From: a virus | Length of the DNA: 64,000 nt | Strand: one strand, 5' to 3' | Virus record (IMG/VR): IMGVR_UViG_3300020596_000020 | Location: 1-64,000 of that record | Part shown: in pieces, positions 45,612 to 51,399 of the stretch | Numbering within the stretch: the stretch's first letter is position 1 | How the letters are laid out: every line of letters starts with the position of its first letter | Notes under the pieces: generated by a model | What the model saw: the letters and a program-made list of their open reading frames with translations, nothing else | Databases searched by the model: none | Told to the model about the DNA's origin: nothing | Position numbers and translations under genes: made by a program

Positions 45612-46097
45612 ATGAACATCAAACTACTAAGAGAGTACGTCAAACGCGTGCTTGCCGAATCTGTCTGTCCGGGCTGCGGGAACAAGGATGCGTACATTGG
45701 AATAAACGCCGTCGAGTGCCCGAACGCCTCGTGTAGCTTCTTCTCGAAGAGACAACAAGACGACATTCAGGCGGTCGGGGCCGATGACGAGGACGGCGAT
45801 TACGAAGAGTGCGGCTGGTGTGATAACGACATCTCGGGGTGTGGTGGACATTGCGAGAAGTGCGGCGATGGCGACATCGACATGCTACAAGCGTTAGACG
45901 ATGAAGCCAACAAAGCGTTAGACGATGAAGCCAACAAAGTGAGTTACGAGCACTGTGGAATGTGCGGCTTGAAAGCGGTCGACCCTGACACACAGAAGTG
46001 CACAAATTGCAGCAACGGACACTTCCCGGACTGTGCGGGGTGCGGTGGAGCGGTTGACAACCCAACGGCTTGTCAAAACTGCGGCCACCCTAGCTGA
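45612..46097 (+). CDS. Multi-zinc-ribbon protein with N-terminal targeting helix
   Basis: KLLREYVKRVLAE; repeated CxxC pairs; 24-nt duplication (ALDDEANK)x2. Confidence 0.7.
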   Translation: MNIKLLREYVKRVLAESVCPGCGNKDAYIGINAVECPNASCSFFSKRQQDDIQAVGADDEDGDYEECGWCDNDISGCGGHCEKCGDGDIDMLQALDDEANKALDDEANKVSYEHCGMCGLKAVDPDTQKCTNCSNGHFPDCAGCGGAVDNPTACQNCGHPS

Positions 46098-46304
46098 TCA
46101 CGGGCGAACGATCTCCCACCCGAAATTTTCCCACTCGCTCAGGTCCCAGTCAAACTTTGAGATGGACCCGGCCGGCCGACGATCGTCTCCCGCGTCCTCG
46201 ATGACTAGCCCCCACTGGCCGTAGTCATCGATGATGACGAACGACGCTCGTGTAAACGCGAACACGAGGTCGGTGTAGAGGATAACCGTGCCCTTGAGAC
46301 TCAC
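46098..46304 (-). CDS. Hypothetical small protein
   Basis: 68 aa, GTGA overlap with DnaE stop. Confidence 0.45.
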   Translation of the reverse strand: MSLKGTVILYTDLVFAFTRASFVIIDDYGQWGLVIEDAGDDRRPAGSISKFDWDLSEWENFGWEIVRP

Positions 46305-48448
46305 AGATCGGTTCCGTCAACCTCTCGCATGTCACGGAGCGAGCAACTGAAACCGAGTTTGTCTTTCTTCACTCTCACGACGTAACAAGCGTACTTCTTG
46401 AGCTCGCTAATCTGATGCTCGGCGGTGCTCCACACGAACATGCGATGGATGGCGCCGTCCGAGCCGTAGCACGCTAATTGGAAGAAGTTGTTGCCTGTGC
46501 GCGCGGTCTTTTTCTTACCGTCAGACAGTACCATCCAATACGTTCCGTACTTCGCAGTGGTGCATTCCTCGAGAGGCGGGATGTCGTGCGCCTTGAGCTG
46601 CATGCGTAAATCATCGTCGAGCAACGCATCGGGGTCGATAGAGCCATAGAGCTCGATCTGATTCTTCACGATCTCATCACGCGTCCAGTCAGTCAACGTC
46701 TTCGACTCCTCGATGAGCTCGGCGAGTCGGCGAGTGTGATACTCGGGGTCCTTTTTCAAGCGTTTCTTGAGTTCGGCCTGACCATCGACAATGACATGAT
46801 GTAGCTGCTTGTAGTTCTCGAACGTTCTCCCCGGTCCGACGATTTGCATAGAGTCGAACGCCCCGAGTGTCACAAGTGCCCCGAGCGATTTCGAATTAAA
46901 CTTACTGTGTCGCCACGTTCCGTTCTCATCCCAGAGCAGGTCCTCCAACTTACGATACGGTCGTTTCACCAGCAGCTCGTTCACAGCCGAGGTTCCGACG
47001 CCGGTGACCGTGAGGAAAGACGGGTAGAAGGTTCGGTTGTCAGACGCGATCTCCCATTCGCGATTCGAGCGGTTGATGTCAACCTTTGCGACGTCGTAAC
47101 CCATCGCCTTGATCTCGGCCAGCGCACGTCGACGCGAATCAGGATCACCGAGCATGGATTCGACGTACGAGCAGAGCCATTCCGGCTCGTAGTAAGTCAT
47201 CAACCAGGCACACTGATACGAGATATATCCGTACGAGTACGAGTGGGCGCGGTTGAAACCGTAGGCGGCGAACGCCTGTAGGTCGTCGTAGAGCAACTCC
47301 GCCTTTGCGCGTGGATAGCCTTTGGCCTCGGCGCCGTCCACGAACTTCTCGTGCAGCTCGTCGGTCAGTGTCTTCCCCTTGGATGCGTCCTTGGTAGTGC
47401 GTTTCAGGATGGCCTTGCGCAGCTTGTCTGCCTCGACCTCGCTGAAGCCTGAGAGCTTCATTGAAATCTCCATGATCTGTTCTTGATAGATCACGAACCC
47501 CATCGTATCTTCAAGACATTCGTTGACCGCGGCGTGACCGTAGTCCTTCTTCACACCATCACGACGTGCTTTGATGTAGAGCTTGTCGACGTCGGCAGCT
47601 AACGGTCCGGGTCGGTAGATCGCGGTCGCGGCTGCCAGGTCGTGAACGCTACGAGGGTCAAGGTCAGTGATGAATCGCTGCGTGCTTGGATTCGTGAACT
47701 GAAAGATGCCGGCAAAGCGAGACTCACGGAAGACATGGTTGAACACGTCGCTCAGGTTCGGGTCGATGCGACTCGGCGTCAGATTATCGTCGTACCACTC
47801 CTTCACCTGCGCAAAGGTTGGGTTTCGGATCCCGCTGTGACGCTTCAGGATACGACGCACGCACCGCTCAATGATACGTAACGTGTCGAGGCCGAGGAGG
47901 TCGTACTTGACTAAGCCGTACGGGCTGAGACCCTTCATCGCCATGCCTTCACTCCAAGGCGTCTGTAGGTCTCCGCGGACGCTGATGAGTGGCATGATGC
48001 CGTCAGGGTCGTCGTGAACGATGATGCCGCCGGCATGCTTGCCGACAGCCTTCGTCTGCCGACCAAGGATCTTCACGTCGTTGTCGATCGCCGGGTACTT
48101 CTTCATCAGAGCGCGGAAAGCCGGCGAGTGCTCCATGCAGCCCTCGTACGTCAGCTGAACAGAACCCTTGGTGTCGTCGCCGGTATGAAGATGCGGCTTC
48201 ACCTCCTGATCGAGATTCTTGGTGGCGTCGTTGACCTCGTTGAACTCGAGCCCGTGCAGCTTGGACACGTCCTTCACGAGCGACTTCATCTGCAGACCGT
48301 TGAAGTTGCTGATGGGGACGATCGTCTTCTCGCCGAACTCCTTCTTTAGCAGGTCGATGACTTTGTCGCGATCAGAGACGTCGCAGTTGTGTGTCCCAAT
48401 CCAACGATCTTCTTTCATAAAAGAAGAAATTCGATAACTTTTACCCAC
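46301..48448 (-). CDS. dnaE: DNA polymerase III alpha, C-terminal half, preceded by a short C-intein
   Basis: ...GTHN|CD..., KHAGG, KYDLLGL, GIFQF, YRPGP, IYQEQ, YGFNRAHS, OB fold. Confidence 0.95.
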   Translation of the reverse strand: MGKSYRISSFMKEDRWIGTHNCDVSDRDKVIDLLKKEFGEKTIVPISNFNGLQMKSLVKDVSKLHGLEFNEVNDATKNLDQEVKPHLHTGDDTKGSVQLTYEGCMEHSPAFRALMKKYPAIDNDVKILGRQTKAVGKHAGGIIVHDDPDGIMPLISVRGDLQTPWSEGMAMKGLSPYGLVKYDLLGLDTLRIIERCVRRILKRHSGIRNPTFAQVKEWYDDNLTPSRIDPNLSDVFNHVFRESRFAGIFQFTNPSTQRFITDLDPRSVHDLAAATAIYRPGPLAADVDKLYIKARRDGVKKDYGHAAVNECLEDTMGFVIYQEQIMEISMKLSGFSEVEADKLRKAILKRTTKDASKGKTLTDELHEKFVDGAEAKGYPRAKAELLYDDLQAFAAYGFNRAHSYSYGYISYQCAWLMTYYEPEWLCSYVESMLGDPDSRRRALAEIKAMGYDVAKVDINRSNREWEIASDNRTFYPSFLTVTGVGTSAVNELLVKRPYRKLEDLLWDENGTWRHSKFNSKSLGALVTLGAFDSMQIVGPGRTFENYKQLHHVIVDGQAELKKRLKKDPEYHTRRLAELIEESKTLTDWTRDEIVKNQIELYGSIDPDALLDDDLRMQLKAHDIPPLEECTTAKYGTYWMVLSDGKKKTARTGNNFFQLACYGSDGAIHRMFVWSTAEHQISELKKYACYVVRVKKDKLGFSCSLRDMREVDGTDL
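48386..48448 (-). mobile_element. Split intein C-fragment (21 aa from GTG 48448 or 11 aa from ATG 48418)
   Basis: Ends in His-Asn followed by Cys+1 at 48383-48385. Confidence 0.85.
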
Positions 48449-49469
48449 GCTTAATCTCCTGTGACAGACGATCTATTTCGTGTTTGAAATTGACTTTTGT
48501 GGCTGCTTCCCAACATATCAACACGCGACAACCAAGTTTACTCTCTATACGACGTACACGAGATTCGTTTTTAAGACGAATCTGTCCTGCTGTCATACCG
48601 GAATGAAGGAGTTTATCGGCAGTGTAGACGCTTGGATTTGCATGCCAATAGTCGCCATAATACTCAACTGCACAGTCTCGATCTGGAAGGTAAAGATCGA
48701 GACTGTAACACCAACCTTCTTCTCTATTTGAGACAAAGAACTGTCTATTCATCCAAGAATATGATTTCTCGTTCTCAAATTCCTTAAGAAGAGCGTAAAT
48801 AAATTCTTCTTCTTTTGCTGACGAACCGGTCGTATGACTGTTAGGCCATTCAACGTACGGATTCACATTAGCAAACCAATTATTTTTCCCATGCGTTGAG
48901 AGCATGTTTGCTTTATGCAGATCGCGCACATTGCTAGACATCATTGGGTACGAGACACCCAATCGTTGTTCACATGTAGCTTTGTATTTCGCTTGAATCA
49001 ATGTTGACTGAAGTGGTCTATTGACACCATGACGATATCTCATAGTTGCTGTGAATTTATCTTGATATTCGTCAGTGCTATAAAAGGCTGATTTTAGACA
49101 AGATTCACAAAGAAATGTTCTCTTATGCTGACGACGTGCTGTGTTCCCCTCCATTACGTGGAGTTTTCCGCATGTTGGACACTTGAAATTGAATGCCAAA
49201 GAACCTAAAGCATACTTTTTCGCATTCTCATCGACGAAATGACATTTTTCGTCATCAAGCACGAATTCCACGTTGTTGATCAGTAACCCGGTAGTCATCA
49301 CACGCGTAGAAACTGCGTGCTTCACATTTTCGTAGCTGAACCATGGTGTTTCGAACAGTCCGCTAAACTGTTTTCTGAGCAGATTTATTTCGCGCGAGGA
49401 TTCGTCTTTGAGTTGATACCCGTGTTTCGCAGCTAACACTGACGAGAAGTTACTTCGATACTTCATCAA
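48441..49469 (-). CDS. Free-standing Vsr-like/PD-(D/E)xK homing endonuclease between the dnaE halves
   Basis: CPTC/CESC finger, HGV/LGV/HGK repeats, LDLYLP...AVEYYGDYWH..., ICWE; AT-rich; overlaps both dnaE halves. Confidence 0.82.
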   Translation of the reverse strand: MMKYRSNFSSVLAAKHGYQLKDESSREINLLRKQFSGLFETPWFSYENVKHAVSTRVMTTGLLINNVEFVLDDEKCHFVDENAKKYALGSLAFNFKCPTCGKLHVMEGNTARRQHKRTFLCESCLKSAFYSTDEYQDKFTATMRYRHGVNRPLQSTLIQAKYKATCEQRLGVSYPMMSSNVRDLHKANMLSTHGKNNWFANVNPYVEWPNSHTTGSSAKEEEFIYALLKEFENEKSYSWMNRQFFVSNREEGWCYSLDLYLPDRDCAVEYYGDYWHANPSVYTADKLLHSGMTAGQIRLKNESRVRRIESKLGCRVLICWEAATKVNFKHEIDRLSQEIKRG

Positions 49470-51399
49470 CGTCTAAATAGTCATTGACTTTGATAATCAC
49501 GTCACCCAAACGTGGATCACTTTCATCCACGTAGACATCGAACGGAATGACACGAAAAGTGTGAGAATGTTCGACCTCAATGTCCACTAACGTTCGTATA
49601 CCATGCAAAATTATGATACCAACCACGACGCAATTCTCAGATCCCTTGAGAGAGTGCCCGATTAACAGTTGTTTGGCACGAACAACTGTGTTATCATCAA
49701 GTACCATCTTGTGCTCGGCGTTACACACAATCGTTCCATAGCATGAATCTTGTTTCACTAGTAGTTCGTAGATTATCTCATCTTTTCTAGCAGATCTTGC
49801 GTTCACGGTCAAGACTTTACGATGAGCGCCTTCGATATCGATCACAACGTCGTTTTTTTCAACTGTCTCGATGCGCTTATAACTTCCATCTGTCATCATG
49901 ATCAAATGACGAGCATCTAAACAATCGATGTCTGGAACGTCAGTGCGAGCCAACGACATGAAGCGGGCGAAGATGAGATTGTTAGAAACAGGATCGACGT
50001 CTGTGATGCCGAGCACGAAGTTGACGAGGCTGCCGGCTCCGGACCCGCGACCCGGACCGACGAGACAATCCTTCTTGGCAACATCAAGGATCGCCTTCAG
50101 AGTGAGGAAGTAAATGGAGTTGTCGAGCTTCTTGATGACGGACAGCTCGTTCTTGAGTCGCGCGACGTAGGCCGGTAGATGGGCCAACCGCTTCGCGCGC
50201 ATGCCCTCCTTGCAACTCTCCACGAGCGTCTGGAACGGCGTCATGTCGGGGCGAACGCCGAAGCTAGGAAGCTTCACGCTCGTGTCGATGGTCACGTCGC
50301 CGATGACGTCGTGCGCGACGTGCCAGGCGTTCTCGATGGACTCGGCTACGACCGCGTCGTCGTAGAACGCGTGACCCTCCTTGTACAGGTTGTACGCATC
50401 CCACATCTGATCCGCGTTCTTTGGATAGAGCTCGCACTTGAGCTGCTTCACGTCAGCCGGGATGGAGTCCGGACCGAGCTCCGAACCGCCGCGCCCCATG
50501 CGGCCAAGCAGCTTGTACACCTCGCGTGCGCGCCACAGATCGGGGCTACAGTAGTGCGAGTCAGCCGTAGCGACCAACTTGACGCCGTTCGACTTTGCGA
50601 ACTCAAGCAGCACACGGTTGGTGAGGTGTTGAGGCGCTAAGCGGTTGAACTGGATCTCAGCGAACACGTTGTCGCGCCCGACGGCGTCCGTGAGTCTGTC
50701 GAACTCGTTGCCGACGGCTCGCATAACGGCGTCGCGCTTCCCAGGTTCGTCCAGGATATCTGGGGTCAACTCGTCGAACGACTTACCGGCGAACTGAGAG
50801 TACGTCGCCCAAGATGGCACGCCGGCAACGCAGGCCGTAGACACTACGACGTCCTCGCCATGTTCCTTCAGCATTGCCGAGTCGATGCGCGGGAAGCGGT
50901 AATAACCCTCGCGCGCACTGCGAGACACCAAGCGAAAGATGTTCTCGAGGCCCTTCTGCGACTTAGGAAGCAGCACGAGGTGGTGGCGACGCTCGACCGG
51001 GTCGAGGTATTTGCCGTTACGCTTGGACGCGTCCTCGTCTTCCACGGCGACGCCCGTGTCATCTTCGTCATTGTCCGGACGCTTGACTTTGGCAGCCTCG
51101 CGCTCTTCCTTGCGCACTTGGTCACGCGTGACTTTCGCTGCGGCCCAGTCCTTCAGACTCGGGATGTAGTATGCTTCGACCCCGGGAATGAACTTCATGG
51201 GTCGACCGTTTTTATTCAACTCCTGTGTTTTTTGGTAGCATTCAGGGAACGAGTTCATGTTTCCATGATTCGTCATAGCCATCGAGCTCATGCCATTGTC
51301 AGCAGCGAACTGGATGTGATCTCCTCCATCACCGAAGCCGTCGTAGATGCTTTTCCCATCGTGTGCGTGCAAGTTCGCGAACTTCTTCGGATTTACCAT
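49450..51399 (-). CDS. dnaE: DNA polymerase III alpha, N-terminal half (PHP + palm start) fused to N-intein
   Basis: LHAH, TNHG, GVEAY, HLVL, ADSHY, GPGRGSGAGSL, PDID|CL. Confidence 0.95.
   Translation of the reverse strand: MVNPKKFANLHAHDGKSIYDGFGDGGDHIQFAADNGMSSMAMTNHGNMNSFPECYQKTQELNKNGRPMKFIPGVEAYYIPSLKDWAAAKVTRDQVRKEEREAAKVKRPDNDEDDTGVAVEDEDASKRNGKYLDPVERRHHLVLLPKSQKGLENIFRLVSRSAREGYYRFPRIDSAMLKEHGEDVVVSTACVAGVPSWATYSQFAGKSFDELTPDILDEPGKRDAVMRAVGNEFDRLTDAVGRDNVFAEIQFNRLAPQHLTNRVLLEFAKSNGVKLVATADSHYCSPDLWRAREVYKLLGRMGRGGSELGPDSIPADVKQLKCELYPKNADQMWDAYNLYKEGHAFYDDAVVAESIENAWHVAHDVIGDVTIDTSVKLPSFGVRPDMTPFQTLVESCKEGMRAKRLAHLPAYVARLKNELSVIKKLDNSIYFLTLKAILDVAKKDCLVGPGRGSGAGSLVNFVLGITDVDPVSNNLIFARFMSLARTDVPDIDCLDARHLIMMTDGSYKRIETVEKNDVVIDIEGAHRKVLTVNARSARKDEIIYELLVKQDSCYGTIVCNAEHKMVLDDNTVVRAKQLLIGHSLKGSENCVVVGIIILHGIRTLVDIEVEHSHTFRVIPFDVYVDESDPRLGDVIIKVNDYLDVDEVSK
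49453..49923 (-). mobile_element. Split intein N-fragment, 157 aa
   Basis: Block A CLDARHLIMMTDG, block B CNAEHKMV, block F LVDIEVEHSHTF; no terminal HN. Confidence 0.88.

Follow-up and report, generated by a model that had tools for sequence, protein, structure and literature searches.

A fractured phage dnaE gene with a natural intein split between blocks F and G

We analyzed a dnaE gene that is divided between two open reading frames (ORFs) in the DNA of an uncultured phage, and find at the break a natural split intein whose two parts separate between blocks F and G, so that its C-terminal piece has only 21 amino acids (aa). The window, by which we mean the whole stretch of 64,000 nucleotides (nt) that was analyzed, comprises positions 1 to 64,000 of IMG/VR record IMGVR_UViG_3300020596_000020. 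The record is an 81.6-kilobase (kb) virus contig with a CheckV completeness estimate of 24%, which suggests a phage genome of ∼300 kb or larger. In the reading that we favor, to which we give a probability of about 0.8, a large uncultured phage has here a "fractured" but functional dnaE, interrupted between PDID and C by a class-1 split intein whose trans-splicing would give an active polymerase.

Three ORFs that follow one another on the minus strand make up the locus: 49450-51399 (649 aa), 48441-49469 (342 aa), and 46301-48448 (715 aa, with a GTG start). The first of these has the PHP domain and, of the Pfam model DNA_pol3_alpha (260 positions), positions 2-105; it reaches ...PDID and continues with a cysteine (CLDARH...) and 156 more residues that contain a Pfam match to the Hint domain (residues 500-577 of the ORF). 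The third opens with GTG, MGKSYRISSFMKEDRWIGTHN, and then CDV, its first 21 residues ending in THN, and it carries positions 110-260 of DNA_pol3_alpha together with DNA_pol3_finger and HHH_6 (Pfam). Since the two portions of DNA_pol3_alpha, 2-105 and 110-260, are found on separate ORFs, the two halves represent one dnaE cut at a single point. The original prediction, made from the sequence alone, had proposed just such a dnaE fractured by a split intein with a free-standing endonuclease gene between its halves, and the split Pfam match, the Hint fold of the N-terminal intein piece, and a PHROG match of the middle gene all support it. The N-half, the endonuclease gene, and the C-half occupy three different frames. 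The endonuclease gene begins 17-20 nt before the N-half ends, and its stop codon shares nucleotides with the GTG that opens the C-half (GTGGGTAA). In the frame of the C-half there is a stop nine codons upstream of the GTG, with no earlier start codon, and the C-intein can therefore be no longer than 21 aa.

The N-intein is 157 aa long and contains block A (Cys1 = C493), block B (NAEH, His563), and block F (LVDIEVEHSHTF, Asp606 and His613). An acidic tail had been predicted to follow these 157 aa; its acidity is confirmed (net charge −6), but the tail is counted within the 157 aa and is not an addition to them. The N-piece was modeled with AlphaFold2 together with 18 relatives, at a mean predicted local distance difference test score (pLDDT) of 86.7, and the model matches 86 PDB chains at Z ≥ 8; the 50 best-listed PDB entries are all inteins or related Hint domains (bacterial intein-like [BIL] and Hedgehog). 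The best structural match is to a BIL domain (Z 16.8), with gp41-1 (6riz) close to it (Z 16.7, root-mean-square deviation 1.6 over 119 residues, 23% identity). Model residues 8-136 correspond to chain residues −1 to 120 of gp41-1, whose intein has 125 residues, and residues 9-136 of the model cover chain residues 0 to 131 of the 137 of Npu DnaE (4kl5; Z 14.8). Because both alignments extend to within five to six residues of the C-termini of the solved inteins, the N-piece lacks only the last strand. These superpositions also uphold the prediction that block F resides in the N-piece. At the sequence level gp41-1 is again the best match among solved inteins in profile comparison (E 2e-10); a single-sequence phmmer search of the PDB with the N-intein returned nothing useful, and phmmer with the N-intein gave 23 matches at E ≤ 1e-10. 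Taken with structural Z scores of 16-17, this puts the identification well outside what chance would give.

A canonical (S0) split would leave blocks F and G together on a C-intein of ∼33-54 aa. Here block F is part of the N-piece and the C-piece, at most 21 aa, consists of block G and one clamp strand. The split site is thus in the S11 region and not at S0, in the nomenclature of Sun et al. as it is used in PMC13014065. All class-1 catalytic residues are present (Cys1, His563, Asp606, His20-Asn21, and Cys+1). The His, Asp, F, and P of the N-intein core are invariant in a 19-sequence family alignment, with block-B His563 and block-F Asp606 invariant across the intein family, and His20, Asn21, and Cys+1 of the C-half are invariant in five aligned sequences.

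Two lengths, 21 and 11 aa, had been proposed for the C-intein. We prefer the longer, because AGGAG is found 7 nt upstream of the GTG, because the orthologue in a second phage contig (L005, described below) has an ATG at the same codon (MGK...), and because the motif RISSF, upstream of the internal ATG, is conserved; the 11-aa start is accordingly disfavored. One database protein (P0004, 694 aa, from a 6.5-kb contig) matches the start of the C-half identically and was called from the internal ATG. It is without 11 residues of the window protein, DATKNLDQEVK, and is either a strain variant or the product of an insertion or deletion (window 48299-48448).

The intein is located at the catalytic center of the polymerase. 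Profile alignments to Pol III alpha of Escherichia coli (2hnh, residues 360-415) and Taq (2hpi, 422-465) place the end of PDFD at 403 and the end of PDID at 465, respectively. D401 and D403 (Taq D463 and D465) are thus the two Asp residues of PDxD, and both are encoded in the N-half, contrary to the original prediction, which had assigned the two catalytic aspartates to different genes. D492, the second catalytic Asp, is the −1 residue, with the intein immediately behind it; a conserved Asp also follows Cys+1 but is not the equivalent of D403. By these alignments the active site is split 2 + 1, with two Asp residues on the N-half and only the third, D183 of the KYD motif, on the C-half, where it had been expected. 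Relatives with an uninterrupted dnaE, which it had been proposed to look for, do exist: intein-free relatives (87% identity over the C-half) read PDID-V-DVSDRDK or PDVD-C-DVSDRDK, so that the sequence predicted to result from splicing, PDID-C-DV, is one that occurs in nature.

A co-fold of the two intein pieces had been suggested as a check. The N-piece (166 aa) was folded together with the first 50 aa of the C-half in three runs, alongside three controls. The interaction prediction score from aligned errors (ipSAE) was 0.77, 0.76, and 0.81 in the three runs and 0.02 for the best control, the score of 0.77 reflecting in part likeness to the intein fold; the runs share at least 80% of contacts, and the partner pLDDT is at least 58. 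This pair reaches the mark used for these co-folds, as do 58 of 80 solved complexes and two of 110 mismatched pairs. In the predicted complex, RWIGT of the C-piece (residues 15-19) is paired with TFRVIP, where block F ends, and ISSF (residues 7-10) with DVYV of the tail, which contacts C-intein residues 5-10. The interface is predicted to include residues 9 and 11 of the N-piece chain (junction −1 and +2) and residues 20-24 of the C-half. Within the tail there is a strand, DVYVD, that pairs with the C-intein and a hairpin that ends in YLDVDE; its strands are at residues 137-142 and 151-154 of the N-piece model. In the model the F-G β-hairpin is longer than in minimal inteins and would be cut at its tip. 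The charges of the two pieces (−6 for the acidic tail, +2 for the basic C-piece) would fit the capture step known for canonical split inteins.

Predicted docking alone could keep the halves together, and the intein pieces might no longer splice and only clamp the DnaE halves to each other noncovalently, as in the "gene in pieces" of Aeh1 NrdA; a fragmented ribonucleotide reductase that assembles without splicing is documented (PMC3045599). We regard this explanation as unlikely. A clamp would not need the class-1 catalytic residues, yet all of them are kept both here and in diverged relatives, and an unspliced insert of ∼180 aa one residue past the palm catalytic Asp would probably not be tolerated.

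Two independent phage contigs have the same layout, their C-pieces being 21 and 20 aa long. In the first of these (L005; JACCDT010322299.1, a 300-kb metagenome contig), dnaE is in three pieces, the second of which (P0002) ends in an N-intein that is 55% identical to that of the window, including the tail to YLDVDE. A 337-aa endonuclease homologue (50% identity) comes next, its start overlapping the end of the N-half by 14 nt. The third piece begins with ATG at the same start position, its 21-aa C-intein MGKDMRISSFRREARWVGTHN being followed by CDV, with GGAG upstream and the overlap ATGGGTAA. The second (L006), a diverged IMG/VR contig, has the same three genes and a 20-aa C-piece that ends in SSHN followed by S, with GGAG upstream; it thus has Ser+1 instead of Cys+1. 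In this contig (L006:6500-7480) the N-intein tail ends in ...SFELKL and the C-intein starts with MRQFELHS, and the endonuclease gene may thus have a copy of the clamp strand on either side. Many other members of the family likewise have a long tail whose last strand is R-I-x-K-L-like.

With only the N-intein as query, a full HMMER search of 1.84 billion representatives matched 47 clusters: 45 DnaE pieces, one contiguous protein (P0103), and one partial match to an unrelated protein (P0101, 2714 aa). The 45 DnaE pieces stop 2-58 aa past block F (some of the shortest tails may be contig ends), with the consensus ...TDITVE..sTFqvvPFDV, and all those with an intact N-terminus have the intein between PD[IV]D and C. 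The contiguous protein runs on through ...TIVSHN and a following S into the C-extein, and is a contiguous member of the intein family. A word-based search for longer proteins with a contiguous version of the intein found none, which is weak evidence. The P0103 locus and alignment A3 had no match, the former in viral contigs and the latter in viral or genome contigs; megablast of the window locus against GenBank phages also gave no match, and tblastn with P0002 returned distant DnaE genes only.

Several relatives are interrupted at further positions. P0103 is a 622-aa DnaE fragment with four inteins: a C-intein at GRG-SGAGS, a contiguous intein before SLPDID, the contiguous one at the PDID site, and an N-intein after FKQDKS. 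The phage DnaE clade to which it belongs is an intein hotspot. Among other relatives (P0060, P0071, P0096, P0065, P0082, and P0085), some "middle" ORFs of DnaE consist of a canonical C-intein, an extein of ∼7 residues, and the long N-intein of the present family; one such extein, TSWPDID, holds both catalytic Asp residues. In these cases the polymerase would need three pieces, one of them contributing seven residues. In a sister phage (L003:581-5667), with a DnaE 64% identical and the same downstream helicase gene, dnaE is fractured at a different site (GRG-C ... HN-SGAGS), with a canonical C-intein of ∼35 aa and a 343-aa endonuclease gene, and its PDVD-V-DV site is uninterrupted. Related strains (85%-99% identity) are present in microbial-mat, sediment, and "outdoor" metagenomes of several studies (X3-X5); their contigs are short and cover the locus (46301-51399) in parts only.

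The record contains only 24% of the genome, and one could suppose that the locus is a decaying pseudogene, in which insertion of the endonuclease gene killed both the intein and the polymerase while another polymerase does the work. We find this very improbable, since both ORFs are intact and no Pol III domain is missing, since the three-gene layout and the catalytic residues persist where the inteins are only ∼30%-55% identical, and since the start/stop coupling and the Shine-Dalgarno sites are conserved. In addition, no PolA, PolB, or second DnaE was found in the two genome fragments examined, although this is weak evidence.

In PHROG, the matches of the middle gene are to homing-endonuclease families (phrog_3339, E 5e-11); its product has a zinc ribbon and a putative Vsr-like nuclease domain. 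A phmmer search of the PDB with the single sequence gave no match. A profile made from six cassette genes of the window, L003, L005, and L006 matched Vsr (1cw0, E 0.009) and I-Bth0305I (3r3p, E 0.066) over the region D...E.xG.YWH...WE. Judged from these matches, the gene would fit, if weakly, the Vsr-like family of the fractured genes described previously (PMC2677866; PMC3239194). Its orthologues in L005 and L006 are found at the same place.

The endonuclease gene appears to be the core of a larger cassette. One contig from run X3 (depth 11.8) joins position 49519 to position 48436, skipping a segment of 1082 nt that extends from the final 22 codons and stop of the N-half, through the endonuclease gene and the Shine-Dalgarno sequence, into the first four codons of the C-half. 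The joint has 32 nt on its shorter side and 5 nt that are common to both sides; AAAGT is present at both cassette borders, and apart from these 5 nt there are no long direct repeats flanking the cassette. The joined form is in frame, reading ...HTFRVIPFDVYVDES-YRISSFMKEDRWIGTHN followed by C (FDVYVDES-YRISSF), and would be a contiguous mini-intein of 152 aa; the join falls at the turn of the F-G hairpin as placed by the co-fold. This is a hint that an endonuclease-free contiguous allele exists in another sample, and the cassette may be mobile. A degenerate pattern for the joined FDVYVDESYRISSF form had no match in viral or genome contigs. The GC content is 0.42 in the intein and cassette, compared with 0.56-0.59 in the exteins.

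The contig with the skip could also be taken to mean that the intein is in fact contiguous, its halves being rejoined at the level of nucleic acid or translation (by an assembly error, a group I intron with the endonuclease gene inside it, frameshifting, or read-through), but this we consider highly improbable: a 36.7-kb Logan contig from X1, possibly the source sample, is identical over the whole stretch, an X3 contig with eight differences bridges the junction between N-intein and endonuclease gene, the independent L005 and L006 share the layout, an Rfam search of 48200-49700 found no RNA family or intron at E ≤ 1, the three ORFs are in three frames, and the skipped form comes from a run presumed to be DNA and hence represents an allele and not an RNA product. 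No RNA run is among the sequencing runs listed.

With these alternatives weighed, a trans-splicing intein could have been broken and could work as follows. The intein family would carry an elongated β-hairpin between blocks F and G, at the tip of which the Vsr-like homing-endonuclease cassette sits. The cassette would supply the upstream gene with a short acidic tail and a stop codon, and the downstream gene with a ribosome-binding site and a start codon. The N-piece would then be an almost complete HINT domain minus its last strand, and the basic 21-aa C-piece would dock as one long antiparallel strand on the extended block-F strand, bringing His20-Asn21 and Cys+1 beside Cys1. Standard trans-splicing would give ...PDID-C-DVSDRDK... 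and an active polymerase.

Some points weigh against this account. Splicing of the two halves is a prediction. The Thr of the block-B TxxH motif is replaced by Asn (NAEH). The co-fold result may mostly reflect likeness to the intein fold, of which many solved structures exist, and not binding. With a record that is 24% complete, a second polymerase may be encoded elsewhere, and the endonuclease-free joint rests on one Logan contig with the short 32-nt side given above.

The closest known systems are the fractured genes of Dassa, London, Stoddard, Schueler-Furman, and Pietrokovski (2009; PMC2677866), which likewise consist of two same-strand ORFs with split-intein halves and, between them, a free-standing endonuclease gene (Vsr-like there, putatively so here), from environmental phages. 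Their set includes three environmental DnaE loci and the Vsr-like endonuclease family; its split inteins have N-parts of 88-105 aa and C-parts of 33-54 aa, the one exception being a terminase whose N-part is short. In contrast to the intein described here, which breaks after block F, those inteins break at the canonical site. In addition, their loci have a noncoding spacer of 27-51 nt before the endonuclease gene, whereas the ORFs of the window overlap. As in the intein-less SbcD-like locus of that study, where the inserted endonuclease gene is flanked by residues that relatives lack, the cassette appears to bring additional residues with it: 25 C-terminal and nine N-terminal there, 22 and four in the window. 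gp41-1 (6qaz, 6riz) also stems from a fractured phage gene, yet it is split canonically (88 + 37) and has a short F-G turn. The natural split of Npu DnaE is at 102/103.

With respect to the position of the cut, the intein resembles laboratory constructs, as had been noted when the locus was first inspected. In the engineered S11 or short-IntC inteins (Ssp DnaB and GyrB S11, Ter DnaE-3 S11, and Npu DnaE with a 15-aa C-intein; PMC3620165, PMC2664965) the split is likewise between the last two HINT strands, with a large, near-complete N-piece and a small block-G C-piece fit for peptide synthesis. Those C-pieces are 6-15 aa long and mostly slow in their kinetics, whereas the present intein is natural, belongs to a large family, and has an extra clamp strand of 14 aa that is predicted to pair with an extension of the block-F strand. 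The AceL/GOS TerL, VidaL, and PolB16 OarG inteins are also natural and metagenomic and also pair one very short with one near-complete fragment; however, their short fragment is the N-piece (15-37 aa, S1/S2), and that of the window is the C-piece. A paper of March 2026 from the Mootz laboratory, which also authored the AceL-TerL and PolB16 OarG work, names only S1 and S2 as natural atypical sites (PMC13014065). In the full-text literature, paywalled papers and databases aside, we found no report of a natural split this near the C-terminus, and within the literature searched the F/G-split layout is otherwise reported only for laboratory-made inteins. We incline, though by no means strongly, to the view that this is the first natural S11-like (F/G) split-intein family, trans-splicing efficiently with a C-piece of ∼20 residues, short enough to be supplied as a synthetic peptide, and that it arose from a cassette that invaded the tip of the F-G hairpin and not the canonical site.

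The features of the locus are collected in Table 1. Between a helicase-like gene and dnaE there is, in addition, an ORF of 161 aa on the opposite strand (45612-46097, plus strand) that is rich in CxxC pairs.

Table 1. Features of the fractured dnaE locus, in coordinates of the window
Feature	Position	Strand	Basis
N-extein, ends in PDID: PHP domain of DnaE and beginning of the palm	49924..51399	-	Pfam; profile comparison with Pol III alpha of E. coli and Taq (PDB)
N-intein core C493-F620: blocks A, B, and F, then family motif RVIPF	49540..49923	-	AlphaFold2 model, superposition, family alignment
N-intein tail, 29 aa after PF, net charge −6	49453..49539	-	Conserved in L005, P0002, and P0003
Putative mobile cassette, 1082 nt, GC 0.42, AAAGT on both sides	48437..49518	-	Skip in one X3 contig
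Free-standing homing-endonuclease gene, start TTG 49469 or ATG 49466	48441..49469	-	phrog_3339; Vsr-like profile match
Shine-Dalgarno AGGAG, 7 nt upstream of C-half GTG	48456..48460	-	Sequence; GGAG equivalent in L005 and L006
C-intein, 21 aa, net charge +2: YRISSF (clamp strand), MKED (turn), RWIGTHN (block G)	48386..48448	-	Alignment with L005, P0005, and P0026; co-fold
C-extein: Cys+1, rest of palm, fingers, HhH	46301..48385	-	Pfam; uninterrupted relatives
Third catalytic Asp, D183 of C-half	47900-47902	-	KYD motif

For protein semisynthesis and labeling, split inteins in which one of the pieces is very short are in demand. Natural split inteins usually behave better than engineered splits, and to our knowledge every natural short piece reported so far has been the N-terminal one. 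A natural family with a C-piece of ∼20 aa, comprising dozens of diverged clusters, would offer starting points for the ligation of C-terminal peptides. The locus further indicates that the intein fold has a second site at which a homing-endonuclease gene can reside, and it provides a likely pair of empty and filled alleles for study. For the phage itself, polymerase activity probably depends on splicing, the −1 residue being a catalytic Asp, in a DnaE clade that is densely colonized by inteins.

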